From positions 1-56,413 of IMG/VR virus record IMGVR_UViG_3300025732_000048: a DNA stretch of 56,413 bases; one strand, given 5' to 3'. The number at the start of each line of letters is the position of its first letter. Position 1 is the stretch's first letter. The position numbers and the translations under genes are program-made. Positions 1 through 13,700 of the stretch are shown in pieces. The DNA is from a virus (Duplodnaviria; Caudoviricetes). Below the pieces are notes generated by a model. It was given only the letters and a program-made list of their open reading frames with translations. It had not been told where the DNA came from and ran no database searches.

Positions 1-2
1 TT

Positions 3-155
3 GCCACTGCTTTATTCGCAGATGAGCGCACAACTGAACTCTTTGCTCAACTGATTAGTGAGTTTGTAGAGACAAACATTCCTGTGGTTGATGATGAGAA
101 CCAGATGGAACTTTCTATGATGCTGTTGGAAACTCTGGACATTGTAGCACGATGA
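3..155 (+). CDS. Partial (5'-truncated) acidic hypothetical early protein
   Basis: Open frame from window edge ...ATALFADERTTELFAQLISEFVETNIPVVDDENQMELSMMLLETLDIVAR; TGA overlaps next ATG (ATGA, 152-155). Confidence 0.7.
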   Translation, partial: ATALFADERTTELFAQLISEFVETNIPVVDDENQMELSMMLLETLDIVAR

Positions 156-406
156 CTTACTCTAACCTCTCAAAGATTCGTCCTAAACTTCGTACAACTG
201 GGCGTGTGTCAGGGAATTTCGGAAAATCAAAAGTTGTCGCAGGTTCTTCACTTAATGACATCGGTGGTGATGGTAACATAGGAGCAACACAAGATGAGTA
301 TTTGAATCGTCTCTATTATGCTTTTGATAACACTGCCGAATCTGAACTTCGTCGTTTCATTTATCAGGAAATCCGTAAAATCCACATCCAAAGAGGAACT
401 TGGTAA
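152..406 (+). CDS. Hypothetical early protein, 84 aa
   Basis: ORF track; coupled to upstream stop; ends just before repeat copy 1. Confidence 0.75.
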   Translation: MTYSNLSKIRPKLRTTGRVSGNFGKSKVVAGSSLNDIGGDGNIGATQDEYLNRLYYAFDNTAESELRRFIYQEIRKIHIQRGTW

Positions 407-420
407 GAGAAATAGCTTTG

Positions 421-456
421 AATTAAAGTTATGATCGTCCAAAGCGTACCTATAGT
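421..456 (+). repeat. 36-bp cassette/promoter repeat, copy 1
   Basis: AATTAAAGTTATGATCGTCCAAAGCGTACCTATAGT followed directly by ATG (457). Confidence 0.97.
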
Positions 457-696
457 ATGAGCACTAACATCGTTTCCGAAATCTACTCCTACCACACAAA
501 TTGGAAGGAAGGTAAAGTCAATCAAATGTGGATTGAGCAAATCACTGATAAAGAGTGTGACAATCTTTACGTTGCTGTTGCTCACAATCCCCGCAATGGT
601 TCTACGATGGAGATGAGCAATCCCCGCACATCTTATCAGGAAACTCTAAACTGGGTTCGTCATTGGTGTGGCACTTTCTGTATTCTTCCTGCCTGA
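457..696 (+). CDS. Hypothetical early protein, 79 aa
   Basis: ATG abuts repeat copy 1; ORF track. Confidence 0.75.
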   Translation: MSTNIVSEIYSYHTNWKEGKVNQMWIEQITDKECDNLYVAVAHNPRNGSTMEMSNPRTSYQETLNWVRHWCGTFCILPA

Positions 697-702
697 TTGA
701 TT

Positions 703-846
703 ATGACACAAACTCAATGGGATGATCTTTACATCAAACTCTACGAAGCGTATGAGTTTGTGTCACTGAAAGATGAGCAAGTTCGCTCTACTCTTGGTGA
801 TGCACTTGACCGACTGATTGACATTAACCCTCGCAACAAAAACTGA
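703..846 (+). CDS. Hypothetical early protein, 47 aa (not in ORF track)
   Basis: MTQTQWDDLYIKLYEAYEFVSLKDEQVRSTLGDALDRLIDINPRNKN; fills the gap between neighbours with TGATT(GATT)ATG junctions. Confidence 0.7.
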   Translation: MTQTQWDDLYIKLYEAYEFVSLKDEQVRSTLGDALDRLIDINPRNKN

Positions 847-848
847 TT

Positions 849-1118
849 ATGTTCCGCACACTTTCTGAACTTCGTGACTCTATCAACCAAATGATTGAGA
901 GTCAAGGTGAGAACGCTCCCTGTGCTGCGTTTGTATTCACTCAACATGATGTGTTTGAGTTCAATGAGGAAACCAATCAGGATGATTATTTCTCTACACT
1001 TTTCACTCAAGATGTACTCGCTGATGTAGGTGGTTCTTCCTACATTTACGAACAGGTTGGTGAAATGATTGATGACGCAATTCGTCTCCGTAAGAAACTC
1101 CCACTCTACGCTAATTGA
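849..1118 (+). CDS. Hypothetical early protein, 89 aa
   Basis: ORF track; tight packing. Confidence 0.75.
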   Translation: MFRTLSELRDSINQMIESQGENAPCAAFVFTQHDVFEFNEETNQDDYFSTLFTQDVLADVGGSSYIYEQVGEMIDDAIRLRKKLPLYAN

Positions 1119-1120
1119 TT

Positions 1121-1306
1121 ATGACTGACGCTGAACTCACTAAACTTTACTACAGAAAGACTCGACTGTTTGATTTCTTGTATGAAACTTGCAAAAAGAA
1201 TGATGGTGTCTTAGTAGATACTTTGAACAACTACATTTCTTCCTTGGATGAGGTGGAACTGTGCGAACTTGAAGATTTTCTTGTCAACAACTTTGGAGAT
1301 GATTGA
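1121..1306 (+). CDS. Hypothetical early protein, 61 aa
   Basis: ATG at 1121 after TGATT; acidic C-terminus. Confidence 0.7.
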   Translation: MTDAELTKLYYRKTRLFDFLYETCKKNDGVLVDTLNNYISSLDEVELCELEDFLVNNFGDD

Positions 1307-1500
1307 TGACTGACGGTTACACTTTCAATCGAGTTGAGTTCACTGCTAATGAGGAAACTTGTATCCTTAAGTTTCTCAATGAAGCACGAGAATGTGGGTA
1401 TCCCAGTGGTAACGAACCATGGTATCCTGTGATCGATTCTATCTTCCAAAAGTTCTTCAATTCTAACATTAAAGAGGCACAAGACTGGCAGACACTATGA
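1306..1500 (+). CDS. Hypothetical early protein, 64 aa
   Basis: TGATG coupling at 1304-1308. Confidence 0.7.
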   Translation: MTDGYTFNRVEFTANEETCILKFLNEARECGYPSGNEPWYPVIDSIFQKFFNSNIKEAQDWQTL

Positions 1501-1640
1501 AGTACATCGTTGAGTTATACGTTGGTGGCAAAGTCTTCAAAGAAGAAGTACAAGCAACCAACCCAAAAGATGCCCGTGAGACAGCATTAGCACGAAATCC
1601 TCATGCTAGAGTAGTTGGTGTCAACGCAAGTTTCAAGTAA
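1497..1640 (+). CDS. Small cyanophage-type hypothetical protein, 47 aa (not in ORF track)
   Basis: MKYIVELYVGGKVFKEEVQATNPKDARETALARNPHARVVGVNASFK; ATGA coupling; stop TAA overlaps repeat copy 2. Confidence 0.75.
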   Translation: MKYIVELYVGGKVFKEEVQATNPKDARETALARNPHARVVGVNASFK

Positions 1641-1674
1641 TTAAAGTTATGATCGTCTAAAGTGTACCTATAGT
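1639..1674 (+). repeat. 36-bp cassette/promoter repeat, copy 2
   Basis: AATTAAAGTTATGATCGTCTAAAGTGTACCTATAGT + ATG. Confidence 0.97.
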
Positions 1675-1845
1675 ATGAGCAACACTTTCACCGTCCGTTT
1701 CGTATCTGATGCTCTGGATTCTCCAGAGTATATTGGACCTTTCTACTCTGAAGATGACGCACAAGACTATTGCGATGCTCGCAACGGTTCTTTACAACTA
1801 GGTGGGATTCCTTCCTGGGTTGCTTGTTACTCTGTTGTTGACTGA
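1675..1845 (+). CDS. Hypothetical early protein, 56 aa (not in ORF track)
   Basis: MSNTFTVRFVSDALDSPEYIGPFYSEDDAQDYCDARNGSLQLGGIPSWVACYSVVD; ATG abuts repeat. Confidence 0.7.
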   Translation: MSNTFTVRFVSDALDSPEYIGPFYSEDDAQDYCDARNGSLQLGGIPSWVACYSVVD

Positions 1846-1878
1846 TTGATGATTTCCCTTCCTAATCCTACAAACAAA

Positions 1879-2097
1879 ATGACACTTACTCAAGACCAAA
1901 TCTACAAACTGACTCAACTCTATGCTGCGCGAGTTGTTGATAACATGGACATGCGTGATTTGTGTGTATTTGCCCAAGAGACGATTGTTGATAATATGAT
2001 TGACTATAATGAGAGTGAATTGATGGAAGAATTGTCGCACTATTATGAGGATGATGAACTCCAAGAATTAGTGGAAAGTGTAACACAAGAGCCCTAA
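1879..2097 (+). CDS. Acidic hypothetical early protein, about 72 aa
   Basis: ORF track 1846..2097; ATG 1879 after an AC-rich leader preferred; start uncertain. Confidence 0.7.
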   Translation: MTLTQDQIYKLTQLYAARVVDNMDMRDLCVFAQETIVDNMIDYNESELMEELSHYYEDDELQELVESVTQEP

Positions 2098-2105
2098 TTC
2101 GTTTG

Positions 2106-2141
2106 AATTAAAGTTATGATCGTCTAAAGTGTACCTATAGT
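2106..2141 (+). repeat. 36-bp cassette/promoter repeat, copy 3
   Basis: AATTAAAGTTATGATCGTCTAAAGTGTACCTATAGT + ATAACCGCACAACC + ATG. Confidence 0.97.
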
Positions 2142-2155
2142 ATAACCGCACAACC

Positions 2156-2749
2156 ATGATGCAGAAACTCACAACGAATCAGGTTTATGGCAAACTCAAA
2201 GTAACTGATTTCAGTGTATTTGAGAAACCTGGAAAGAACAAAGGTGCTCGCGGGCAACTGTTAGAAACTGTGCTCGGAGTTCCTAATAGCTCTGACCTCA
2301 AAGATCTGGAGGATGGAGAGATCAAGACTTTCACTGTTGGTGAATCTATTGCTGCCACACAGTTAAAGCATTGTCTATCTGAAATCATCGAAGATTCTGT
2401 CTCGTTTGATGATAGCAAGGTTGGACAGAAACTACAACAAACTCTGTATGTTGGTTTCACCCGCTCCAACGATTATGTGGGTTGTGAGATTCTGAATGAG
2501 GAAACTCACCCCGAACACTATCAAGAATTGCGTGAGGATTATGACTTCATTTGTGATAGCATCCGCACACTTTTCAATGCTGGCAAACAACTAGGAACCA
2601 TCACTGGTCCTCACGGATTGCTACAGATTCGCACGAAAGCATCTAAAACCAATGGTGCTTATGTTCCTCTAACTTTCGCAGGTGTGACCCTTAAGGATAA
2701 AGGAATGGCATTTTATTTGTGTGGACAATTCGGACGCAATCTGTTCTGA
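2156..2749 (+). CDS. MutH/Sau3AI-family PD-(D/E)XK endonuclease
   Basis: NKGxxGQLLExxLG, D-x4-EIKT, GES, ELREDY, GLLQIRTKA and AFYL match the ordered motifs of MutH (DKGWIGxLLExxLG, DF...ELKT, LET, LREDW, YLQIRPKA, GFYL). Confidence 0.85.
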   Translation: MMQKLTTNQVYGKLKVTDFSVFEKPGKNKGARGQLLETVLGVPNSSDLKDLEDGEIKTFTVGESIAATQLKHCLSEIIEDSVSFDDSKVGQKLQQTLYVGFTRSNDYVGCEILNEETHPEHYQELREDYDFICDSIRTLFNAGKQLGTITGPHGLLQIRTKASKTNGAYVPLTFAGVTLKDKGMAFYLCGQFGRNLF

Positions 2750-2784
2750 ATTAAAGTTATGATCGTCCAAAGTGTACCTATAGT
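2749..2784 (+). repeat. 36-bp cassette/promoter repeat, copy 4
   Basis: AATTAAAGTTATGATCGTCCAAAGTGTACCTATAGT + ATG; first base is part of the MutH-like TGA stop. Confidence 0.97.
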
Positions 2785-2967
2785 ATGACCAACATTCAAA
2801 TCGACTTCCAAGATACCATTGCTCCCGCACTTCTGGAGTTTATGTGTAACAATCACACAGACCTGAATGATACTGTAGATTGGGTTTGTGATGTATTTGA
2901 CCTTGATGCAACTGATGAATTGATTGATCAGATTGCTGATGAGTTTGATGCTTTCTTCGGTAACTGA
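2785..2967 (+). CDS. Highly acidic hypothetical protein, 60 aa
   Basis: 15 D/E, no K/R; ATG abuts repeat. Confidence 0.75.
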   Translation: MTNIQIDFQDTIAPALLEFMCNNHTDLNDTVDWVCDVFDLDATDELIDQIADEFDAFFGN

Positions 2968-2976
2968 TTAACACAA

Positions 2977-3159
2977 ATGACACACTACAATCCTTACGTT
3001 GAAAACCTAATTGAGATGGGTTATGATGAGCAAGACTGCCGCAATGTAGCAGCAGTTGGTGAAACAAACGTAACTTATCCGCGTAACATTCACGGTCGCA
3101 TCTTTGAGACTGAAAATGAATACAAAGAAGCACTTGCTGACTTTATCAACGGACTGTGA
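2977..3159 (+). CDS. Hypothetical early protein, 60 aa
   Basis: ORF track; stop overlaps repeat copy 5. Confidence 0.75.
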   Translation: MTHYNPYVENLIEMGYDEQDCRNVAAVGETNVTYPRNIHGRIFETENEYKEALADFINGL

Positions 3160-3194
3160 ATTAAAGTTATGATCGTCCAAAGTGTACCTATAGT
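3159..3194 (+). repeat. 36-bp cassette/promoter repeat, copy 5
   Basis: Identical to copy 4; followed by ATG. Confidence 0.97.
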
Positions 3195-3383
3195 ATGAGC
3201 ACAACCAACAACGACAAAATGTTTATTCTCAACGATACCGCAAAGAATGATCCTGCTGTTCAGATTGCAATGGCAAATTATATTGAACAGTTAAAGCGTG
3301 AGGAAGCACGTCGGCAGGCAATTCTCTCTGGTGAGTATGTACCTTGTCCTGAAACTTCCTGGAATATCTCTGACCGCGACTGA
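3195..3383 (+). CDS. Hypothetical early protein, 62 aa
   Basis: ATG abuts repeat. Confidence 0.75.
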   Translation: MSTTNNDKMFILNDTAKNDPAVQIAMANYIEQLKREEARRQAILSGEYVPCPETSWNISDRD

Positions 3384-3398
3384 ACTATATCTGAAATC

Positions 3399-3614
3399 AT
3401 GAAACTTTTCATCCTCAACAATGTCCTCTCTGATTGGACTTCTGGAATGGCAGTTATCGCTGCTGAAACTAAAGAACAATGCCGCGAGTTGTTTATCAAA
3501 GAGTTCAGCGAATATCATGCTCATGAGTTCGACAATCATGCCAAGTTCACTGTTATCGAATCGGTAGGACTTGATGAAGCAGGTGTTATCTCTTATGAGT
3601 ACGGTGGTGGTTAG
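3399..3614 (+). CDS. Hypothetical early protein, 71 aa
   Basis: ORF track. Confidence 0.75.
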   Translation: MKLFILNNVLSDWTSGMAVIAAETKEQCRELFIKEFSEYHAHEFDNHAKFTVIESVGLDEAGVISYEYGGG

Positions 3615-3619
3615 TTAGA

Positions 3620-3772
3620 GTGGCAACCAAAAGACTCACTTTCAAGTCACCTGATAAAGTGAAAACAATTCTCCTCATTTTCGCTGTTGCTTTTATACTC
3701 TCCCCAGGAGTTCGCAACACTACCTCATCCACACTTCACACTGTAGCAGACATTATCCAACCTCATGATTGA
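3620..3772 (+). CDS. Small putative membrane protein, about 50 aa (GTG start)
   Basis: MATKRLTFKSPDKVKTILLIFAVAFILSPGVRNTTSSTLHTVADIIQPHD; one hydrophobic segment; fills the gap; start could be 3659. Confidence 0.55.
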   Translation: MATKRLTFKSPDKVKTILLIFAVAFILSPGVRNTTSSTLHTVADIIQPHD

Positions 3773-3905
3773 GACTGATTATTACATCCTGAACCAGGAA
3801 CAATTCAACCAGTATAACACTGAAGCACAAGAAGTAGGTGTTAGCTTGGATTATTATTTGGATGAGTTTTGTGATGTGATTGGACCGTACATCACAAGTA
3901 ATTAA
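3765..3905 (+). CDS. Acidic hypothetical protein, 46 aa (not in ORF track)
   Basis: MIETDYYILNQEQFNQYNTEAQEVGVSLDYYLDEFCDVIGPYITSN; last codon and stop (AAT TAA) lie inside repeat copy 6. Confidence 0.65.
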   Translation: MIETDYYILNQEQFNQYNTEAQEVGVSLDYYLDEFCDVIGPYITSN

Positions 3906-3935
3906 AGTTATGATCGTCCAAAGTGTACCTATAGT
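3900..3935 (+). repeat. 36-bp cassette/promoter repeat, copy 6
   Basis: Identical core to copies 4/5; followed by ATAACC leader. Confidence 0.97.
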
Positions 3936-3956
3936 ATAACCATCACACTTCCTACC

Positions 3957-4271
3957 ATGCGAAAGATTGAAAAGCAAATGAACGACGCAATCCTGAATCA
4001 AAAGGATTGGAAACAAGATAACACTGAAGTTATCTCTTGTTCCCATGTTTCTGATGTCTACCTTCACAACAATCTGATTGCCAGAATAGGCGAAACCTGG
4101 ATCGAATTGTTCGATGGTGGTTATCAATCAAAAACCACAAAGAGTCGCCTTAATGCTATTCTCCAAGCACACGGTTGCAAGAATGAGTATGTCTTTCAGA
4201 AGAAAGGTCAGTGGTTCATTCAATACAATGGAGCACCAATTCCTTTCTTCTCTGGTATGCGATTGAACTGA
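3957..4271 (+). CDS. Conserved phage hypothetical protein, 104 aa
   Basis: MRKIE...NTEV...VYLHNNLIA...TTKSRLNA pattern recalled from phage early proteins. Confidence 0.8.
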   Translation: MRKIEKQMNDAILNQKDWKQDNTEVISCSHVSDVYLHNNLIARIGETWIELFDGGYQSKTTKSRLNAILQAHGCKNEYVFQKKGQWFIQYNGAPIPFFSGMRLN

Positions 4272-4311
4272 ATCTTTCACTCTTAAGTAACACTCACTCT
4301 TCATTCCTTAA

Positions 4312-4446
4312 ATGTTCACAATCCGCTACTTTACTCCATATCAACAACAGTGGAGAACGCAATCATTCTCTACACTAGAGGAAGCAAATCGTATGGTTGA
4401 GTTCTACAAATCATGCGGAAGTCCTGCTGAACTCATTAACAACTAA
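4312..4446 (+). CDS. Hypothetical protein, 44 aa (not in ORF track)
   Basis: MFTIRYFTPYQQQWRTQSFSTLEEANRMVEFYKSCGSPAELINN. Confidence 0.65.
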   Translation: MFTIRYFTPYQQQWRTQSFSTLEEANRMVEFYKSCGSPAELINN

Positions 4447-4453
4447 TCCTATC

Positions 4454-4690
4454 ATGTTACTCTCCAAAGCATCATTCACTGACCAACAACTTCCTCCGTT
4501 CATTGTAAAGAAAGAGGATGAATATACAGAAGAAGGTAACTACTCTCTTCACCTATTCTCCAGAACTGTTATCACAACTGAAGGTAGAAAGTATAGGTAT
4601 CTGCCTCTTAAGTTTGAAGGTGAGTTAGCACGATTCAAGAAAAGAAAGGAAGCAGAAGAATACGCAAGGTACAGATTAGCACTTGATTGA
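4454..4690 (+). CDS. Hypothetical protein, 78 aa
   Basis: ATG 4454 preferred over track start 4397, which would overlap the 4312 ORF; followed by terminator. Confidence 0.7.
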   Translation: MLLSKASFTDQQLPPFIVKKEDEYTEEGNYSLHLFSRTVITTEGRKYRYLPLKFEGELARFKKRKEAEEYARYRLALD

Positions 4691-4699
4691 ATACACATA

Positions 4700-4726
4700 G
4701 AGACCTCATTCGTGGGGTCTTTTTTT
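4700..4726 (+). terminator. Rho-independent terminator
   Basis: AGACCTCA-TTCG-TGGGGTCT followed by T-run. Confidence 0.9.
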
Positions 4727-4950
4727 ATGCCTATTTGTATGATTTGTGGTAAAAAATGTATTAAAAACGATTAAAAATGTATTAAAAAATATATTTTACC
4801 TTTCTTTATCGTGTGATAATTATTGTTATTAAGAGGTGATAATGATATGAATTCGTATCAAATAGAGAGTGATTTATGTGTCTTTAAATGTGTCTGGGTC
4901 TGACACTTATAGTCAATTAAATGTGTCTGGTGCTTGTGATCTAAGCCCGC

Positions 4951-4979
4951 ATTCTATCACCTCTCCGCACAAATGTCAA
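4951..4979 (-). promoter_or_regulatory. Leftward sigma70-type promoter (extended -10)
   Basis: Minus strand TTGACA (4979-4974), 17 bp, TGA-TAGAAT (4956-4951). Confidence 0.7.
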
Positions 4980-5054
4980 GACCCGCCGCCATCAGAAATC
5001 CCACACATACCCTCACAAAAACATAAGCATCCCGAATAAATACCCCCAGACTCA

Positions 5055-5083
5055 TTGACATTTTTCCAGCAGCATCTTACAAT
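5055..5083 (+). promoter_or_regulatory. Sigma70-type early promoter
   Basis: TTGACA-17bp-TACAAT. Confidence 0.8.
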
Positions 5084-5110
5084 ACTCTCATACACATTCG
5101 GAGCGTACTT

Positions 5111-5284
5111 ATGTCAGTTGCTTATTCCCAGGCACAGAAGCAGCGTTATCGTATCACTCTGGATCTATCAGTGTTCGGTGACTTCGACCCACACCAGATT
5201 GATTGGGAGAAGTTATTCAAGTTGGAACCTGCAGAGAAGTGTGATGCTTACGTTGAGGACCTAAGTACACCTGACAACTGGTAA
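5111..5284 (+). CDS. Hypothetical protein, 57 aa (not in ORF track)
   Basis: MSVAYSQAQKQRYRITLDLSVFGDFDPHQIDWEKLFKLEPAEKCDAYVEDLSTPDNW; GGAG SD at 5100; downstream of promoter. Confidence 0.75.
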   Translation: MSVAYSQAQKQRYRITLDLSVFGDFDPHQIDWEKLFKLEPAEKCDAYVEDLSTPDNW

Positions 5285-5293
5285 TCTTCAAGG

Positions 5294-5329
5294 TATTAAA
5301 GTTGTGATCGTCGAAAGCGTACCTATAGT
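5294..5329 (+). repeat. 36-bp cassette/promoter repeat, copy 7 (diverged)
   Basis: TATTAAAGTTGTGATCGTCGAAAGCGTACCTATAGT; 4 differences from copies 4-6. Confidence 0.92.
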
Positions 5330-5376
5330 GTAGGGGGCACACAAACGACCCCCACACTAACACTCAAGACGTACCA

Positions 5377-5628
5377 ATGACTGTCACTTACCAGCACAAT
5401 GTTCTCGACACCAGCTATAACGGTTGGGAGAATTATGAGACCTGGAATGTTGCTCTGTGGATTAACAATGATGAGGGTTTGTATCACCTCGCAATGGAAG
5501 TTGGCAACTACGTTGACTTCATCGACCTGCTAAATGACCAGGGTATTGTGAGCACTCCTGACGGGGTTAAGTATAACGACCCTGCTGTAAATGTCATCCA
5601 ATTGAATAGCGATGTGTTCGACCTCTAA
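5377..5628 (+). CDS. Conserved phage hypothetical protein (YNGWxNYETWNVALW family)
   Basis: YNGWENYETWNVALWINNDEGLY motif. Confidence 0.8.
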   Translation: MTVTYQHNVLDTSYNGWENYETWNVALWINNDEGLYHLAMEVGNYVDFIDLLNDQGIVSTPDGVKYNDPAVNVIQLNSDVFDL

Positions 5629-5698
5629 GTAACACATACTCCTGTCGCAAGAGTATAAACTAGGCACCACACAGTTCACAACACTTTTCTTCTTTATT

Positions 5699-5839
5699 AT
5701 GTCCAAGTCCGTGATGCTTTCTCTGCTTGCTCAAGGTAACACTGGCAGCGAAATCCTGTCCATCCTTGATACTCTCACTGAGGACAATCAGCAGGCAGTT
5801 GCTTATGCTGAACCAACCGCAGATAGCATCGAGTTCTGA
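5699..5839 (+). CDS. Hypothetical protein, 46 aa (not in ORF track)
   Basis: MSKSVMLSLLAQGNTGSEILSILDTLTEDNQQAVAYAEPTADSIEF. Confidence 0.65.
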   Translation: MSKSVMLSLLAQGNTGSEILSILDTLTEDNQQAVAYAEPTADSIEF

Positions 5840-5849
5840 TACTAACTGT

Positions 5850-5889
5850 GTGCCCCTTGGTTGACACTGAGGGGCACTTATGTTATGAT
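5850..5889 (+). promoter_or_regulatory. Sigma70-type promoter with -35 inside an inverted repeat
   Basis: GTGCCCCT...AGGGGCAC flanks TTGACA (5861-5866); 17 bp; TG-T-TATGAT (5884-5889). Confidence 0.8.
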
Positions 5890-6047
5890 GTCTCAGTGAC
5901 ACTTATCGGCAGTGTTTTGCCGCCGATTGTTTATAGCGTCGCGGCGGCGTGATGGGGGCGGGCGGTTTTAAAATCGCTAACTACCCTAACCTACAGAGGT
6001 GACAAAACGCGAACGATATATCAATCTTATAAAATTTTTCCGGAAGT

Positions 6048-6206
6048 ATGATCAGTCTCAAAACCCCCCGCAGAGGACCTTATTGGAATTTTTGGAGAGT
6101 GGTACTCGCAGGTTGGATAATCAGATATCCAAAGACAATGGGTAGAATGGTATTAGTCCCCCTAGGGTTTTTGATAGTACTGATATATAATGCGGTAGTA
6201 AATTAA
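6048..6206 (+). CDS. Small putative membrane protein, 52 aa (not in ORF track)
   Basis: MISLKTPRRGPYWNFWRVVLAGWIIRYPKTMGRMVLVPLGFLIVLIYNAVVN; hydrophobic C-terminus. Confidence 0.6.
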   Translation: MISLKTPRRGPYWNFWRVVLAGWIIRYPKTMGRMVLVPLGFLIVLIYNAVVN

Positions 6207-6241
6207 GTTTTATTATAAAAAATTCCGAAAATATTTTTCAT

Positions 6242-6460
6242 ATGGAAAAGGTTTACCACATATATGCAAAGGATAGATGTTTATATCATTCTCTCAAGGA
6301 AGAAGAGTTTGAGAGAACTTGGAACACCTTGAAGAATATGGTTGGTCTTATGAAGACTGATTATGAGATGGATGATTTAAATTTCACAGAAATTACTGTA
6401 GGTATTGGTGGACACAAAGGGGACAAATCAGCAGAACCACCTGGATCTCCGTCATATTGA
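6242..6460 (+). CDS. Hypothetical cyanophage protein, 72 aa
   Basis: ORF track. Confidence 0.75.
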   Translation: MEKVYHIYAKDRCLYHSLKEEEFERTWNTLKNMVGLMKTDYEMDDLNFTEITVGIGGHKGDKSAEPPGSPSY

Positions 6461-6485
6461 CAAGGCATATATAGACTGTTAAAAT
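6457..6485 (+). promoter_or_regulatory. Sigma70-type promoter (extended -10)
   Basis: TTGACA-17bp-TAAAAT with TGn. Confidence 0.75.
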
Positions 6486-6509
6486 TGAGTTTGAAGGTTA
6501 CTAAACTTT

Positions 6510-7274
6510 ATGGCAAAAGGATTTACTGTAAAAGCAGCAGCACCAACACCCAAAGAAGATTGGGATATTGATGCGATTAAAGAAAGGATGCGAGGGAAGA
6601 GTATTGTATTCTGTCTACCTGGACGTGGATGCTCTTTTATTTTTCTGAAGAACTTTGTACAACTGTGCTTTGATATGGTACAGAATCAGATGAGTATTCA
6701 GATTTCACAAGATTATTCATCAATGGTAAACTTTGCACGTTGTAAGTGTCTTGGTGCCAATGTTCTTCGTGGTCCGAAACAAATTCCTTGGGATGGTAAA
6801 CTACAATATGATTATCAACTTTGGATTGACTCGGATATTGTCTTTGACACTAACAAGTTCTGGCAACTCTGTGATCTTGCTCTGAATGAAGAAGGAGAAG
6901 AGAAAGAAGTTGTTGCTGGTTGGTATGCCACAGAAGATGGACACACAACCTCTGTCGCACACTGGTTGGAAGAAGATGATTTCCGCAAGAATGGTGGAGT
7001 TATGAATCACGAAACTGTGGAATCAATCAGCAAGCGTCGTAAGCCATTCACTGTAGACTACACAGGTTTTGGTTGGGTTCTCATTAAGAAAGGTGTTTTT
7101 GAGAATCTTGAGTATCCTTGGTTTGCTCCAAAGATGCAAGTCTTTGAATCAGGTAATGTTCAGGACATGTGTGGAGAAGATGTTTCATTCTGTCTTGATG
7201 CTAAGGAAGCTGGATTTGATATCTGGTGTGATCCTCGTATTCGTGTTGGACATGAAAAAACTCGCATTATCTGA
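6510..7274 (+). CDS. GT-A (GT2-like) glycosyltransferase-fold protein
   Basis: YDYQLWIDSDIVF DxD motif; VDYTGFGWVLIKKGVFE; GEDVSFC; IRVGH. Confidence 0.8.
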   Translation: MAKGFTVKAAAPTPKEDWDIDAIKERMRGKSIVFCLPGRGCSFIFLKNFVQLCFDMVQNQMSIQISQDYSSMVNFARCKCLGANVLRGPKQIPWDGKLQYDYQLWIDSDIVFDTNKFWQLCDLALNEEGEEKEVVAGWYATEDGHTTSVAHWLEEDDFRKNGGVMNHETVESISKRRKPFTVDYTGFGWVLIKKGVFENLEYPWFAPKMQVFESGNVQDMCGEDVSFCLDAKEAGFDIWCDPRIRVGHEKTRII

Positions 7275-7429
7275 TGAACTATAACGTACTTTATAAAGGA
7301 CGTAAGATTTATATGGACCTCACTCCTGAAGAGTGTAGTGAGGTTCTACAAGATCTCTCAGAAAAGTTTTTCTCGGGAGATGATATTGACCCTAACTTTA
7401 TTGAACTGGAGGAAATTGTAAATGGCTAA
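7274..7429 (+). CDS. Hypothetical protein, 51 aa (not in ORF track)
   Basis: MNYNVLYKGRKIYMDLTPEECSEVLQDLSEKFFSGDDIDPNFIELEEIVNG; TGATG coupling. Confidence 0.7.
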   Translation: MNYNVLYKGRKIYMDLTPEECSEVLQDLSEKFFSGDDIDPNFIELEEIVNG

Positions 7430-7565
7430 AGGCGGCGGATCGAATAAGACTATTTTTGAACCTGGAGCACCGAAGAAGACTCGTCAAGGACGTTCTCCTC
7501 GTACACTACTCAGTGCGACCTCTCGTAATGGTCGTAAGAAAAAATATCGCGGACAAGGTAAATAG
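7422..7565 (+). CDS. Small basic protein ending KKYRGQGK, 47 aa (not in ORF track)
   Basis: MAKGGGSNKTIFEPGAPKKTRQGRSPRTLLSATSRNGRKKKYRGQGK; GGAGG SD upstream; C-terminal motif recalled from T4-like phages. Confidence 0.8.
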   Translation: MAKGGGSNKTIFEPGAPKKTRQGRSPRTLLSATSRNGRKKKYRGQGK

Positions 7566-7586
7566 TATTAACTAACATATGAATAT

Positions 7587-8270
7587 ATGTACCACTTAGA
7601 AGTATCTGATGAATGGAATGCAATTCATCCAGAAGATATGTGGGTATATAATAAACTATTCTTAAATCATCGTCTAGGGCATCTCTGCGGACCAGCAGGG
7701 TGCCCTGTTCCATTTTTAGGGGATTATATCGTTCGACCAAGTATTAATTTACTTGGAATGGGACGATTTTCTCGTATAGAAAGAATACAATATAGTACAG
7801 ATCACTTTCATCCATCTGAATTTTGGTGTGAACTATTTACAGGAATTCACTATAGTGTTGATTTTCAGTATCAAAAATCAGAATTGGTTGTTTTGGGTGA
7901 AAGAGATGATGATGAACCTCTTTACAAGTGGAAAAAGTGGACTAAAATTAACCATGAAGTAAAATTTCCTAACATTCTAAAGGATTTAAAGGGCAATTAT
8001 GAGTGGATAAATTGTGAATTTATAGGGAATAAACTCATAGAGGTACATTTTAGAAGAAATCCCGACTTCAGATATGGAAATAATATCGCAATTCCTGTAT
8101 GGAAAGGTGACAGACCTCAAAAAATTGAAAATTTTACTTTCGTAGAAGACAAAGACTACTTGAGAAAAGGATTTTTCATTGATTCACGGGATAGTAACCC
8201 CGTAAAAAGTTCTGATTTAACCAATCAGGAGCAAAAAAATGGAAGAAAAGATGTTAAGGGAGATCGCTAA
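7587..8270 (+). CDS. ATP-grasp-like protein
   Basis: YIVRPxxNLxGMG, FWCELFxGxHYSVD and INCEFIGNKLIEVHFRRNPD resemble ATP-grasp KP..GxG, EE..G.E.SVD and E...ExNxR motifs. Confidence 0.6.
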   Translation: MYHLEVSDEWNAIHPEDMWVYNKLFLNHRLGHLCGPAGCPVPFLGDYIVRPSINLLGMGRFSRIERIQYSTDHFHPSEFWCELFTGIHYSVDFQYQKSELVVLGERDDDEPLYKWKKWTKINHEVKFPNILKDLKGNYEWINCEFIGNKLIEVHFRRNPDFRYGNNIAIPVWKGDRPQKIENFTFVEDKDYLRKGFFIDSRDSNPVKSSDLTNQEQKNGRKDVKGDR

Positions 8271-8403
8271 TGACGATTTAACCCCCAAAAAACACGATTT
8301 CAAGGTTCAAAACGAAATTCATGAATTAATTCGTAATGATGATGACTATGATGACTGGGAATATGGTACAGAACCACTTTATGAATCAAAAAATCACGAA
8401 TAA
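8239..8403 (+). CDS. Acidic hypothetical protein, 54 aa (not in ORF track)
   Basis: MEEKMLREIANDDLTPKKHDF...DDYDDWEYGTEPLYESKNHE; AGGAG SD at 8227-8231. Confidence 0.7.
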   Translation: MEEKMLREIANDDLTPKKHDFKVQNEIHELIRNDDDYDDWEYGTEPLYESKNHE

Positions 8404-8406
8404 ATA
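8400..8406 (+). promoter_or_regulatory. T4-type late promoter upstream of gp25
   Basis: ATAAATA overlapping the upstream stop. Confidence 0.7.
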
Positions 8407-8426
8407 AGATAGAATTATAATATTCA

Positions 8427-8828
8427 ATGCCTCTAGAAAGGGTAAGTCAAGGTTTTAAGGATATTAGTATGACTTTTCAGAGCAATCCTCTGAACAGTGA
8501 CTTGATAGCACTCAAAAATGAGAGTGCTATTTCTCGTTCTATCCGAAATATTGTATTTACCCTTCCTGGTGAAAAGTTTTTTAATCCAAACTTTGGTTCC
8601 AGAGTCTCAAAAATACTTTTTGAGAACATTGATGAGATTGCAGCATCCAATATTAGAGATGAAATAGCGTCTTCTATTGTAAATTATGAACCAAGAGTTG
8701 AATTGATTGATGTTATTGTAAATCCAGACTATGACAACAACTCCTTTGATGCAATAATTCAGTATAGAATAGTAGGAATAGACGTTCCAACACAACAATT
8801 ACAATTCGTTTTGCAACCAACTAGGTAA
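8427..8828 (+). CDS. gp25: Baseplate wedge subunit gp25
   Basis: AISRSIRNIVFTLPGEKFFNPNFGS...YEPRV; position before gp6. Confidence 0.93.
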   Translation: MPLERVSQGFKDISMTFQSNPLNSDLIALKNESAISRSIRNIVFTLPGEKFFNPNFGSRVSKILFENIDEIAASNIRDEIASSIVNYEPRVELIDVIVNPDYDNNSFDAIIQYRIVGIDVPTQQLQFVLQPTR

Positions 8829-8829
8829 A

Positions 8830-10755
8830 ATGCCACTAGTAAACTTTTCTAATCTGGACTTTGACCAGGTTAAAACAACACTTAAGGATTATTTAAAAGC
8901 TAATCCTAACTTTACTGATTATGATTTTGAAGGATCTAATCTTTCAACAATACTTGATGTTTTGGCATACAACACCTATATTACTTCATATAATGCCAAC
9001 ATGGTTGCAAATGAAGTTTTTATTGATAGTGCCACAATTAGAGAAAATGTAGTTTCTCTGGCAAGAAATATTGGATATGTGCCACGTTCAAGAAAAGCAG
9101 CATCTGCTACAGTATCTTTCTTTGTAGATGTTTCAAATGTAACTCCAGCACCTGCTTCCCTGACTTTAAAAAAAGGAATTGTTGCTACTTCCTCTGGAAA
9201 TTTTGGAAATCAGTCTTTTATATTTTCTATCCTTGATGATGTAACGGTTCCAGTTTTTAATCAAGTAGCGACTTTTACAGATTTAGAAATACATGAAGGA
9301 GTTTTATTAACCAATAACTTTACATATTCGTCTAGAAATCCAAATCAAAAATATATTTTACCAAACTCCGGTATTGATACAGAACTTATATCGGTAACGG
9401 TAAAATCTAACGAAAACGCAACAACTTCTGTGAAGTATGCGTATCAAGATAGTTTGTTTGATATTGATTCAACATCAAATGTATATTTTCTTCAAGAAAT
9501 TGAAGATGAAAGATATGAATTGATTTTTGGTGATGGAATTTTTGGAAAACAGTTGGAAGAGGGTAATTTTATTACTGTAGATTATATTACTTCCAATGGA
9601 GACAGTGCCAATGGAGTTGGTAGTTTCAATTTTTCTGGAAGACTGACATATACAAGAAACTCTATCGAATATACGGTAACATCTGGCATTTCACTTCTAA
9701 CTACTGGCGTTTCTTCTAGAGGTGGGGAAAATATTGAATCTGTAGAGTCGATTAAAAAATATGCTCCAAGAATTTACGCTTCACAAAATAGAGCATTAAC
9801 TTCAAATGACTTTGAAACTTTGATTCCCTCAAAAATTTATCCAGAAACTGAAGCAATTTCTGTATTTGGTGGAGAAGAGTTGATTCCTCCTCAGTATGGA
9901 AAAGTATTCATAAGCATCAAACCTAGATTTGGAGACTTTCTTCCAAATTTAGAAAAAGAAAGTATTAAACTAAAACTAAAAAAATATGCTGTAGCAGGAA
10001 TAGTTCCAGAAATATTAGACCTAAAATATTTGTATGTTGAAGTTAACTCTAAGGTTTACTACAATACCAATCTGGCACCATCATCAGCATTTGTATCAAG
10101 TATAGTACAGTCTAATGCTACCAAGTATTCAGAATCTACTGAGTTGAATAGATATGGAGCTAGATTTAAGTATAGTAAGTTTTTGTCAATGATTGATAAT
10201 AGTCACGAATCTATTACTTCAAACATTACTACCATTCAAATGAGAAGAGATTTGAGAGTGCTTTTGAACACATTTGCTGAATATCAAATTGGATTTGGAA
10301 ATGAATTCCATATTTCTAGTATGGATGGATATAATATTAAGTCTAGCGGATTTCAAGTAGCAGGTATTTCTCAAACGGTTTATTTGGGAGATATTCCAAA
10401 TACAAATAGAGAAACTGGATCTATATTCTTGTTTAATGTTGGGTCAGCAAATTCAAGAACTTCAACTATTTTAAGAAGAAATGCTGGAACAATAGATTAT
10501 AAAAATGGAGTAATAACTTTAAATCCAATAAACATTCAATCTGGAAAAATCAAAGATGGCCAACCAACTATTGAAATTTCTGTTGTACCTAGATCAAATG
10601 ATGTTATTGGAAAACAGGATCTTTATTTACAACTAGATATTAATAGCAGTAATTTTGAAATGGTTGTTGATGAAATTGCTTCTGGATTAGATCCAGCAGC
10701 ATCCAAATACATTGTCTCTTCAAGCTACAGTAACGGGAACCTAGTAAGATTGTAA
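8830..10755 (+). CDS. gp6: Baseplate wedge subunit gp6
   Basis: LDFDQVK...FTDYDFEGSNLSTILDVLAYNT; FGDGIFG; QNRALT; PQYGKVFISIKP. Confidence 0.95.
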   Translation: MPLVNFSNLDFDQVKTTLKDYLKANPNFTDYDFEGSNLSTILDVLAYNTYITSYNANMVANEVFIDSATIRENVVSLARNIGYVPRSRKAASATVSFFVDVSNVTPAPASLTLKKGIVATSSGNFGNQSFIFSILDDVTVPVFNQVATFTDLEIHEGVLLTNNFTYSSRNPNQKYILPNSGIDTELISVTVKSNENATTSVKYAYQDSLFDIDSTSNVYFLQEIEDERYELIFGDGIFGKQLEEGNFITVDYITSNGDSANGVGSFNFSGRLTYTRNSIEYTVTSGISLLTTGVSSRGGENIESVESIKKYAPRIYASQNRALTSNDFETLIPSKIYPETEAISVFGGEELIPPQYGKVFISIKPRFGDFLPNLEKESIKLKLKKYAVAGIVPEILDLKYLYVEVNSKVYYNTNLAPSSAFVSSIVQSNATKYSESTELNRYGARFKYSKFLSMIDNSHESITSNITTIQMRRDLRVLLNTFAEYQIGFGNEFHISSMDGYNIKSSGFQVAGISQTVYLGDIPNTNRETGSIFLFNVGSANSRTSTILRRNAGTIDYKNGVITLNPINIQSGKIKDGQPTIEISVVPRSNDVIGKQDLYLQLDINSSNFEMVVDEIASGLDPAASKYIVSSSYSNGNLVRL

Positions 10756-10759
10756 TAAC

Positions 10760-13700
10760 ATGTCAGAAAAAAGAATTCAAATTAAAGACGTTGTAAAGAA
10801 TCAAATTCCCCAATACATCAAAGAGGATTTTCCTCTTGTTGGAGAATTTTTATCTCAATATTATCTTGCTCAGGAATTTCAAGGAGCACCTATTGATTTA
10901 CTTCAAAATATTGACAAGTATGTAAAAGTTGATTCTATAACTGAGTTAAAAAATTCAACAGTTCTTGGATCTGATATAAGTGAATTTGACGAAAATATAA
11001 CTATTAGTCTTTTGGATTCTGAAACTGGAACTAAAGGATTTCCTGAAAAGTATGGTTTGATTTCCATTGACAATGAACTTATTGTATATGAAAGCAAAAC
11101 TGACAGTGCATTTATTAATTGCTACAGAGGATTTAGTGGAATTGTAGCCTATAAAAATACCAATGTAGGAATAGCGGCTACTTATAAATTAAAATCGAGT
11201 GATGAACTTATTTTTAAGGAGTCCAATGCAGCATCCCACAAAGAAGGGACAGAAATCTTTAATCTCAGTAGCCTTTTCCTACAAGAATTTTTAATTAAAA
11301 CTAAGTATCAAATCGCACCTGGGTTTGAAAATAGAAGTTTTGTTGATAAAGTCAATGAATCTCTATTACTAAAACAGATAAAAGATTTTTATAGAAGTAA
11401 AGGAACTGATAGATCTTTTGAAATTTTATTCAAGGCTTTATATGGAGAAGATGTAAAGATTATAAGACCAAAAGATTTACTCTTTAGACCATCGGATGCT
11501 CAATACAAAGTAACTAATGATCTAGTTGTCGAATTAATTTCTGGTCCAATTGAAGAGATATCAAATCTTACTTTGTTCCAGAACGAATATCTAGATTTAA
11601 CAAAATCTTATGGAACTGTATCTGAAATAGAGACAATAACTTCCGATGATAATAGAGTATTTTATAAATTAAAAATTGATGGTGGATACAATAGGGACCC
11701 AGCTTTTGATGGGGCAATTTACGGAAAGTTTTCTGTTCACTCAAAAACACGTTCGATTGGAAAAACTTTAGCAGGTTCCACATCAATAGATGTAGATTCT
11801 ACTGTAGGATTTTCAACTCAAGGAGAGGTTTATGTTCAATTCTTTGATGGAACTACCGGAGTTGTATCTTACGATTCTAAGACAATAAATCAGTTTCTTG
11901 GATGCTCTAATATAACATCTGATATTTTAGATAATTCTATTGTCGGTATCAACACATATGCTGTAGCCACAACTGCCTCCGGAGAAGAAATTAGAGTTCG
12001 CATAAATTCCATTCTTAATAGTGTAAACATAGATTCTCCAAACTATTTTTACGCTAAGGGAGACACCGCAACTATTCCTACATTTGGATTCCAAGGTAAT
12101 ACTCCTTTAGATAATGATTGGGTTTTTAACACAGCAGCAACTTATAACATCTTATCTTATGAAGTGGTTGACTCTTCAGATAAGACTTATAGTGTAACAT
12201 TTAACAATAGGCACTCTTTCCAAATAGGAGATTTGTTAGAAATAATTGAGAATGAAGTTGCTACAAGACAAGCAAATGTAATTGATATTTTGTCAGAGAA
12301 GACAATAGTAATAAATGGTCAGGGCGATCTAAATGGGGATGCTCTTAAAGTTAGGAGAAAAGTTCTAAAAGTAGATTCTTATAATTATACCAATATAAAT
12401 CTACTATCAGCAAACATTCAAAATGTTTATAGAGACGGAGAAAAACTACTAGTAGCATCTCCATCCATACCAAGTTATGTTAATCAACAACTTAAAGTTA
12501 CAAATCGTTCTGTAACTTTCTCGGGAACCTATCAAGGAGAAACCATACAATTAACTTCTTTAGAAGATCACGGGTTTTACACTGGAGACTCTGTTTACTA
12601 TACACCAGAAGAATCTACGGTAACTTCTGTAGATGCTGATGGAAACTCCTCAACCTCAACTGTAGTGGCGAGTTCTCTATTTGATGAAGGGGAAGGGATA
12701 TATTTTATTAAAAGAATTGATGCTAATAATGTAAAATTTGCTAAGAGTAAATCTGATATTTTAAACGAAAAATTTGTAAGCGTAGTAAATCAAACTACTG
12801 TAACAAATAATAGAATAGAACCATATGAATTTTATAATAAATCTTTAAATTCACAAAAACTTTTAAGAGAAGTTTCTGCCTCATTACCAACAAAGACTGC
12901 TGTAAAAACACTACCTGGATTCACCGGTATATTGGTAAATGGAGTAGAAATATTAAATTATAAGAGTAAGGATAAAATTTTCTATGGTCCTATTGAAGGT
13001 ATTGAAGTACTGTCGGGTGGAAATAATTATGATATCATCAATCCCCCACAAATAGTAATATCCGATTCCATTGGAAGTGGGGCAACCGGAAACTGTTCTG
13101 TTTCAGGATCTCTTGTTGAAGTAAGAATTATTGATCCAGGATTTGATTACTTAGATACTCCTGTTGTAAAAATAACAGGAGGGAATGGTACTGGGGCAAA
13201 AGCAAGAGCTAATATGAAATTAGTCTCTCATGAAGTTTTATTTAATACTGAAGAGAAGTCTGCCCAAGTTTCTGTTGGGGCAACATTATCTGTTATTGGA
13301 TTTAGTACTTCTCATAAATTTAGAAATGCTGAATCTGTAGTTTATAAAACTTTCGGACAGAAATCTGTAAGTGGATTAACAACAAATTCAACTTACTATG
13401 TTTCAGTAGCATCTTCAACATCCGTAAAGTTACATAAAACTTTTGGAGATGCTGTTTCTGGAATAAACACAATAACTCTAAGTGATTATGGAGTAGGAAA
13501 TCATTCACTAGAGTCTGTAAATAAGAAGTCTATTTTAGCTTCTATATCAGTTGAAAGTTCGGGAATTGGATATCAGAATAAAAAACGTCAAGTTTCTTTA
13601 ATAGGAATCAACACATCAACTGATTCAATTCATATTGCAAATCATGATTTTTCATCAGGAGAAGTTGTAAAGTATTCTACTGAAGGAACTGTAATAGGTG

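Follow-up and report, generated by a model that had tools for sequence, protein, structure and literature searches.

A repeated upstream element with a genome-specific box, a probable promoter module in the small-gene region of T4-like cyanophages

Introduction

The IMG/VR record IMGVR_UViG_3300025732_000048 carries near its beginning an array of seven direct repeats, each of which stands in front of small genes. The entire record, 56,413 bases with a completeness rating of 26%, was analyzed and is called the window here. The window represents part of the genome of a T4-like cyanophage, family Kyanoviridae. It codes for T4-type baseplate wedge, neck, sheath and terminase proteins, and the terminase shares 84-87% identity with its counterparts in Kyanoviridae that infect Synechococcus and Prochlorococcus. 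About 20 small co-directional genes occupy the first 5.3 kilobases (kb). The repeated element is likely to be a clade-specific promoter module, which is read by the host RNA polymerase and fires transcription units of small genes.

Several described systems resemble this arrangement. Integron arrays consist of short, ordered cassettes separated by a repeated site and have a single promoter, Pc. The middle promoters of phage T4 are composed of a MotA box at -30 and a -10 hexamer, without a -35 hexamer. In the cyanophage Syn9, a novel regulatory element reportedly controls the early genes, and host-like promoters are said to drive the middle genes. PeSLs, which are found in T4-type coliphages and vibriophages, combine a consensus sigma-70 promoter with a terminator hairpin (Arbiol et al. 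2010, PMC2839356; Comeau et al. 2014, PMC4122927). Cyanophages are not mentioned in the available text of these two papers, with 0 occurrences in that of PMC4122927. T4-like cyanophages are described, in the part of the source at hand, as having neither motA nor asiA (PMC5780444). The element bears on the timing of early genes in T4-like cyanophages, which are devoid of MotA and AsiA.

The element of the window shares several properties with PeSLs. It is a repeated, well-conserved, co-directional upstream element packed in a hyperplastic small-gene region of a T4-like phage, with 7 copies in front of small open reading frames (ORFs) within 4.9 kb, and 10-14 copies within 14-18 kb of fuller records. 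Furthermore, it could serve homologous recombination, and there is no dedicated recombinase. Unlike PeSLs, it has no stem-loop and no -35 consensus, its promoter or terminator activity is predicted at most, and recombination breakpoints are not enriched at it. It also has two features that the available text does not describe for PeSLs, namely a start codon fused to the hexamer and a box specific to each genome. When segments of 70 nucleotides (nt) were folded, the seven copies had no helix in common (z-scores of -0.39 to +1.40), and no Rfam family matched window positions 1-9000 at E <= 1 (0 matches). The fold and consensus scans agree with the sequence-only reading, a first inspection of this DNA, which had noted neither a stem-loop nor TTGACA. 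Because both are lacking, the element is not a PeSL in the strict sense. The assignment to a 'different class' made in that reading holds to this extent, but is overstated, since related upstream elements are found in other Kyanoviridae and together form a family, of which Syn9 carries a variant.

The seven copies in the window

A repeat search identified one family, with 7 direct copies at 416, 1634, 2101, 2744, 3154, 3895 and 5289 that are in register over 54 nt. The element proper is about 42 nt long. A 36-nt consensus, with at most 3 mismatches allowed, has 6 matches compared to 0.00 expected (100 shuffles). The copy at 5294 is more diverged and was recovered with a degenerate 31-nt core pattern, which has 7 forward and 0 reverse matches in the entire record. 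The exact 11-nt core GTACCTATAGT occurs in these 7 places only in all 56,413 bases. The repeat, consensus and core searches therefore confirm what had been seen by inspection, namely seven copies in the same orientation at gene boundaries and none elsewhere in the window. All copies are intergenic and co-directional with the genes. A start codon is called fused below when the ATG directly follows the hexamer TATAGT.

421-462, + strand: copy 1, with an AT-rich left end containing stops, the genome-specific box TGATCG, the invariant core AAAGCGTACCTATAGT and ATGAGC; the fused ATG at 457 opens a gene of 79 amino acids.
1639-1680, + strand: copy 2; the TAA at 1638-1640 closes the upstream gene and the fused ATG at 1675 opens a gene of 56 amino acids (phrog_28075).
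2106-2147, + strand: copy 3, unfused, with ATA after TATAGT; the ATG at 2156 opens a MutH-like gene.
2749-2790, + strand: copy 4, fused to the ATG at 2785; the TGA at 2747-2749 closes the MutH-like gene.
3159-3200, + strand: copy 5, fused to the ATG at 3195; the TGA at 3157-3159 closes the upstream gene.
3900-3941, + strand: copy 6, unfused; the ATG at 3957 opens a gene of the Kyano_Gp96 family.
5294-5335, + strand: copy 7, the most diverged, with GTG for ATG in the left half and GTA after TATAGT, followed by a G5/C5 hairpin and the ATG at 5377.

All three forward frames are closed by the element in 5/7 copies and two frames in 2/7. The stops that the left end had been proposed to supply to upstream genes are present at copies 2, 4, 5 and 6 (the last being the TAA at 3903-3905), and the right end is fused to ATG in four copies (4/7), as claimed. 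GATC, by which the repeat had originally been characterized, is found in 7/7 copies. Across the window GATC is depleted, with 139 sites compared to 225 +/- 14 expected from shuffles, though all element copies retain one. The record starts inside the array and seven copies are therefore a lower bound. In relatives the array extends further upstream, to 13-14 copies in locus L031 and in record G002 (L and G numbers designate fetched loci and records). The G5...C5 hairpin lies within window positions 5330-5376, in the leader of the gene at 5377, and a similar G/C-rich leader is present at the last copy of phage S-SM2.

Anatomy of the element

The anatomy was derived by pooling 225 distinct instances and 19 non-redundant loci with at least 6 copies. 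Sixteen bases, AAAGYGTNCCTATAGT, are essentially invariant in all loci. The ten bases after this core, with the consensus ATGAGCACCA, are conserved whether they are coding or not. A box of about 13 bases on the 5' side of the core has an entropy of 0.00-0.45 within a locus, compared to 0.9-1.75 between loci. The single base between the box and the core (-1) varies freely within loci (entropy 0.87), and conservation is loose in the AT-rich sequence upstream of the box. All window copies (7/7) have TGATCG as the central hexamer of the box, and in other loci this hexamer is GGATCG (13/13 copies), GGGGCC (12/12), CTCACC (11/11) or GGATCC (11/11). Between genomes there are at least 12 box types, many of which differ by one substitution. 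Only five loci are mixed (L009, L022, L045, L020 and L041), and in these the odd copy brings with it a whole foreign left half. A box of about 13 nt that is uniform within a genome and of so many types between genomes is what is new here, and it is the one really unusual property of the element.

Because the box is uniform within a genome beside a base that varies freely, it appears to be maintained by selection and not by mere gene conversion. The pattern of conservation argues for selection by something that differs between phages, and the box may be read by a protein. An invariant core next to a genome-private box is the signature expected of a lineage-specific DNA-binding factor. The only matches to the complement of the box in the window, which would be expected of an antisense partner, are the 7 copies themselves.

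No description of the motif, of the genome-specific box or of the fused start codon was found in the literature, but the promoter logos (S5) of Sullivan et al. 2010 were not covered, so that absence from print is not established. In the part of that paper at hand, only BPROM sigma-70, T4-late, Pho and NtcA sites were predicted. The motif string CCTATAGT was found in T7-primer contexts only, among the matches listed.

Distribution among cyanophages

IMG/VR was scanned for the right half of the element, AAAGYGTACCTATAGT, and 86 stretches were returned, in which single matches may be due to chance. At least 3 copies, and up to 13, are present in 48 fetched loci, some of which are pieces of one contig. 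A scan of related genomes and metagenomes had been proposed in the sequence-only reading, and it located the motif in a large number of contigs from uncultured phages as well as in two isolates, S-SM2 and SynMITS9220M01, where the right half, AAAGYGTNCCTATAGT, heads arrays of 10-14 copies. The arrays are restricted to one stretch of small genes, 14-18 kb long, per genome. The two isolates have about 10 copies each, all on one strand, in about 14 kb of small genes that end shortly 5' of the baseplate genes; the copies are located between 42.7 and 57.1 kb in S-SM2 (GU071095) and at 36.3-50.0 kb in SynMITS9220M01 (MT408532). The 284-kb record G002 (CheckV 100%) contains 14 copies within 18 kb, and only three matches with 2 mismatches outside this region; G001 also has 14 copies within 18 kb. 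In six other isolates (Syn9, S-SCSM1, Bellamy, P-TIM68, S-CREM1 and S-WAM1) the window-type element is not found above a reversed-pattern control. In cellular genomes (596 billion bases) the 16-nt core has single matches in unrelated taxa, among the matches listed, which is consistent with chance. The element is thus a sharply defined and easily found signal for a clade with two cultured phages. It delimits the small-gene region and allows start codons to be predicted, the fused ones among them, which aids the annotation of metagenomic cyanophages.

A related element, GTGTATTCTATARGAG, followed by ATG 18 nt further on, was found in Syn9 through reading of upstream sequences. It is present in 4 exact copies before gp63, gp73, gp78 and one further gene of the equivalent region; the form that precedes gp63, gp73 and gp78 is GTGTATTCTATAAGAG. 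De novo word counts in the Syn9 upstream regions returned only the late-promoter words CTATAA and TAAATA. The Syn9-type variant has four copies in S-SCSM1 and one in S-WAM1. The Syn9 element GTGTATTCTATARGAG is probably the 'novel regulatory element' of Doron et al. 2016 (ISME J), in which case this kind of element is reported to drive early genes.

The Syn9 and window elements occur in the same family, Kyanoviridae, and in the same small-gene region before the baseplate module. Both have the core GTGTA-YYC-TATAR, which is preceded by a G/C-rich box, and in both an ATG is found some 18 nt downstream of the hexamer. However, Syn9 has 4 exact copies compared to 10-14, its hexamer is TATAAG, it has no fused ATG, its leader contains a Shine-Dalgarno-like AAGGGA, and its boxes are not all alike. 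Syn9 does not contain the window-type core, for which its best profile score is about 0. The array of locus L069 changes partway from the window type to the Syn9 type, so that both stand side by side. Taken with the Syn9-type variants, this switch suggests that the upstream elements of Kyanoviridae form a wider family, in which the window element is one branch. Further along the L069 array, in its second half (6121-10450), an element of the form ..GTGTATTCTATAGAAGTTCAAGGGATTTCACCCA-ATG heads at least 4 units and matches the Syn9 type (L116, Syn9 46.3-53.1 kb). The change of type is located at a 4-nt gene overlap, after a duplicated gene pair (families 30 and 10).

The element as a promoter

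Read as a promoter, the element would consist of an AT-rich stretch, the genome-specific box of about 13 nt in place of a -35 hexamer, the spacer AAAGYGTNCC, invariant across the clade, TATAGT as the -10 hexamer, RTRAGC as the discriminator, and a conserved C-A that would constitute the start site. The left end would stop the preceding gene, and the element would fire small-gene, probably early, units just upstream of the baseplate and structural genes. The hexamer TATAGT matches TATAAT at 5/6 positions, and its sole natural variant is TATAAT itself (2 copies each in G001 and G002, and 2 in L009). In the 225 distinct instances, C has a frequency of 0.58 at position 6 after the hexamer and A one of 0.79 at position 7, which is the usual spacing and context of a start site. 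The hexamer has the A at position 2 and the T at position 6 that characterize -10 elements of the sigma-70 type, and a purine stands 6-8 nt downstream, where transcription would start. The first ATG is found 16-21 nt after the hexamer in 54/111 unfused instances. A start codon has a similar spacing of 16-21 nt after the Syn9 variant and after two ATAAATA late-like sites of the window. As the window also contains TTGACA-17-TAnAAT and ATAAATA late-like sites, the element represents a third, separate class of upstream signal.

ATG directly follows TATAGT in 142/253 distinct instances, and the frame it opens extends for at least 30 codons in 136 of these 142. A second ATG lies within 40 nt of the fused one in frame in 73 instances and out of frame in 13, with peaks at offsets 15 (45 instances) and 18 (11 instances); in 56/142 there is none nearby. 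Since the fused ATG is in frame in 136/142 and without another ATG in 56/142, it is evidently selected as part of the reading frame and must occur in some mRNA. Because the discriminator is usually ATGAGC, the first gene of a unit appears to receive its in-frame start codon from the element. The proposal that the element is a portable junction for stop, expression and start has therefore held up well, in that it closes upstream frames and supplies a start codon in 142/253 instances, and its -10-like hexamer makes a role in expression plausible.

Some observations weigh against a promoter. A consensus scan found no -35 hexamer: a TTGACA-like hexamer at 16-18 nt is wanting, and only copy 7 scores 9/12. 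The -35 position is even G-rich in some box types of other genomes. With TATAGT as the -10 hexamer, the fused ATG falls upstream of the predicted start site, 7 nt downstream of the hexamer. To be in an mRNA, it would require read-through from the upstream unit or a start at the A of the ATG, resulting in a leaderless message. A start at that position involves a spacing that sigma-70-type polymerases do not normally use. Over half of the units might be expressed in this way, from leaderless mRNAs that begin at the fused ATG. No trans-acting factor for the box was identified, and the early timing is suggested by the position of the units and by what is said of Syn9. One RNA run (0.05 of sampled words) yielded contigs of relatives only and no transcript 5' ends. 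The relatives are 85-95% similar, and the contigs break at the repeats as assemblies do. Their 'joints' have sides of 20-37 nt that are the repeat itself and are uninformative on start sites or circles.

In an extended form of the promoter model, the invariant core would be read by the host polymerase and the box, which spans about -38 to -26 relative to the predicted start, by a co-evolving phage-specific protein, either an activator replacing the -35 or a shut-off repressor. We regard this extension as tentative and, as it stands, rather doubtful. With an activator, the element would be the cyanophage counterpart of MotA-type sigma appropriation. Like the T4 middle promoters, it combines a -10 of the TAnnnT form with a conserved box, centred near -29 from the predicted start, and is devoid of a -35, whereas the box is unrelated in sequence to theirs and changes between genomes. 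If the model is true, each phage lineage has a private regulatory 'address', common to all of its 10-14 units, and imported genes fall under the resident address because exchange occurs downstream of the box.

Alternative explanations

The repeat could instead act mainly as PeSL-like or integron-like homology for the excision, insertion and reordering of cassettes, with expression as a by-product, which we think unlikely. The 40-nt homology may of course serve homologous recombination in addition to a promoter function, and ordered short cassettes separated by a repeated site are reminiscent of an integron array. Genes do move. In 24 loci the strings of gene families have a common backbone with many differences, some of which concern whole units with the element at their borders. 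Gene 12 is headed by a copy of its own in L031, L099 and L085 but not in the window; the place of the unit of genes 27 and 12 in the array differs between L086 and the window or L028; and the unit of gene 46 and the unit that starts with gene 8 are present or absent between relatives. A segment of L009 (4990-6380) has been replaced, with its left break inside the core in 4 comparisons, and the rare mixed loci carry a whole foreign element. In a tree of one motif-headed gene (33 distinct proteins from 44 loci), the box type changes 15 times, compared to a minimum of 11 and a shuffle mean of 22.8. Close alleles stand there behind different boxes with support of 95/95 and 95/92 (L061 with CGATCG and L040 with CTCACC; L070 with GGATCC and L076/L036 with CTCACC). 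The tree suggests that genes pass from one lineage to another, whereas the box remains that of the resident genome. The joints, however, show little or no excess at the repeat, and genes are gained and lost just as often at junctions that lack it. Between the window and 12 relatives, 27 ends of homology blocks lie at 7 motif junctions (3.86 each), compared to 60 at 16 other gene junctions (3.75 each), and the remaining 46 of 133 are inside genes. Adjacency is conserved at 162/611 (27%) motif junctions and at 216/582 (37%) others; these junction counts were made pairwise among related loci and are descriptive only, no pair being as close as phi1/RB49. Furthermore, gene-by-gene identity changes at nearly every gene, much of the variation is internal to units, as between genes 4 and 1, where the interior differs in 7 relatives, and the chimeric array of L069 switches at a gene-gene overlap and not at the element. 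No tyrosine-recombinase integrase was found (PF00589 in 0/5 element-carrying records; control 14/14 genomes), which agrees with the 'integron without a visible integrase' of the sequence-only reading. The 7 folded copies show no hairpin and no attC-type structure, and each unit has its own promoter-like element, in contrast to the single Pc promoter of integrons. The part of that reading in which crossover between copies drives cassettes has thus fared unevenly: whole-cassette differences bounded by the element do exist, but breakpoints are not in excess there. This comes close to the outcome, breakpoints 'unrelated to the repeat', that it had named as contrary to its own proposal. As breakpoints are no commoner at the motif than at ordinary gene junctions, the integron-like reading, with the repeat as a privileged joint of what appears to be a mosaic array, is weakly supported. 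The joints of the mosaic seem to fall at gene boundaries in general and not preferentially at the repeat.

Alternatively, the element might act at the RNA level in polycistronic mRNAs, as an initiation region for translation without a Shine-Dalgarno sequence, a processing site or an operator for a RegA-like repressor of the unit's first gene. The ATG at a fixed position and in frame in 142/253 instances would be explained in this way, and so would the lack of structure, since 4/7 copies fold less well than shuffles (z > 0.8). No Shine-Dalgarno-like sequence is seen by eye in the core, and read-through is likely because no terminators separate units 1-6 of the window. On the other hand, the 10 nt after TATAGT are also conserved in the 111 unfused instances, where the start codon may be 16-21 nt away, which fits a DNA signal better. 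The change of TATAGT to TATAAT points to a -10 element, neither a ribosome nor a conserved RegA readily accounts for the genome-specific box, and the complement of the box is absent elsewhere in the window. An RNA-level role is accordingly improbable. A promoter for a phage-encoded polymerase of the T7/SP6 type, with a start at the G of TATAG and near-leaderless mRNAs, is more improbable still, and we give it hardly any weight. The promoter of SP6 has the sequence GTGACACTATAG, which the core GTGTACCTATAG resembles by eye, and the L069 variant contains CTATAGAAG. A genome-specific box beside an invariant TATA recalls the specificity between promoter and polymerase in the T7 group, and a start at or beside the fused ATG would explain its fixed position. 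CTATAG is a palindrome, however, and partial likeness to T7-group promoters is therefore cheap. PF00940 matched 0/4 element-carrying records, including two complete isolates and one 100%-complete record, in a search without a positive control. In the available part of a comparison of cyanophages that includes S-SM2 (PMC3037559), host sigma-70 and T4 late promoters are predicted and no phage polymerase is mentioned.

Gene content and other features of the window

The features surrounding the array are listed below.

457-4690, + strand: small-gene region of about 18 co-directional genes in six units headed by copies 1-6, mostly phage protein families of unknown function.
4699-4730, + strand: intrinsic-terminator-like hairpin and T run, at the end of the copy-6 unit.
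5055-5083, + strand: promoter of the canonical sigma-70 type (TTGACA-17-TACAAT), which represents a second class of upstream element here.
5861-5889 and 6457-6485: further canonical TTGACA-17-TAnAAT promoters.

Calling of ORFs with ATG starts only gives 6, 2, 1, 2, 3 and 3 genes for units 1-6. The earlier count of 6, 2, 1, 2, 4 and 3 is reproduced once an ORF of 50 amino acids with a GTG start (3620-3772) is accepted as the fourth gene of unit 5. The stretch 3' of the terminator, at 4740-5100, is AT-rich and non-coding; it contains an exact 16-nt repeat pair, AAAAATGTATTAAAAA, at 4752 and 4773, and facing consensus promoters at 4979 (-) and 5055 (+).

The single gene of the copy-3 unit (2156-2749, + strand) codes for a protein of 197 amino acids that is similar to endonucleases of the MutH/Sau3AI fold. 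MutH and Sau3AI are GATC-specific endonucleases. The protein has no match in Pfam or by PDB sequence, whereas its AlphaFold model (pLDDT 77.6) matches both enzymes (Foldseek 2aoq_A, E 6.7e-07, TM 0.55), and relatives of the protein are named MutH by one source. A MutH-like gene is present in 8/14 loci with GGATCC or GGATCG boxes, compared to 0/27 loci with boxes devoid of GATC. A link between the GATC box and this gene was considered and set aside, as the carrier loci are close kin and many loci are short of that part of the array. It is also weakened by the 139 GATC sites of the window and by S-SM2, which has a MjaI-family nuclease and a box without the matching site. The nuclease of S-SM2 (SSM2_066, L100 847-1374; PF09568, E 1.2e-46) is a restriction endonuclease encoded right behind a copy of the element. 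Restriction-type nucleases appear to be recurrent cargo of the arrays.

Downstream of the array, T4-late-like (N)ATAAATA sites are positioned at 22895, 33031, 35338 and 48372, which is 18-40 nt 5' of structural genes starting at 22922, 33059, 35387 and 48417. The baseplate module contains two giant ORFs, one of 4046 amino acids (10760-22900) with a YHYH domain and the other of 2722 amino acids (24476-32644) with a DUF4815 domain.

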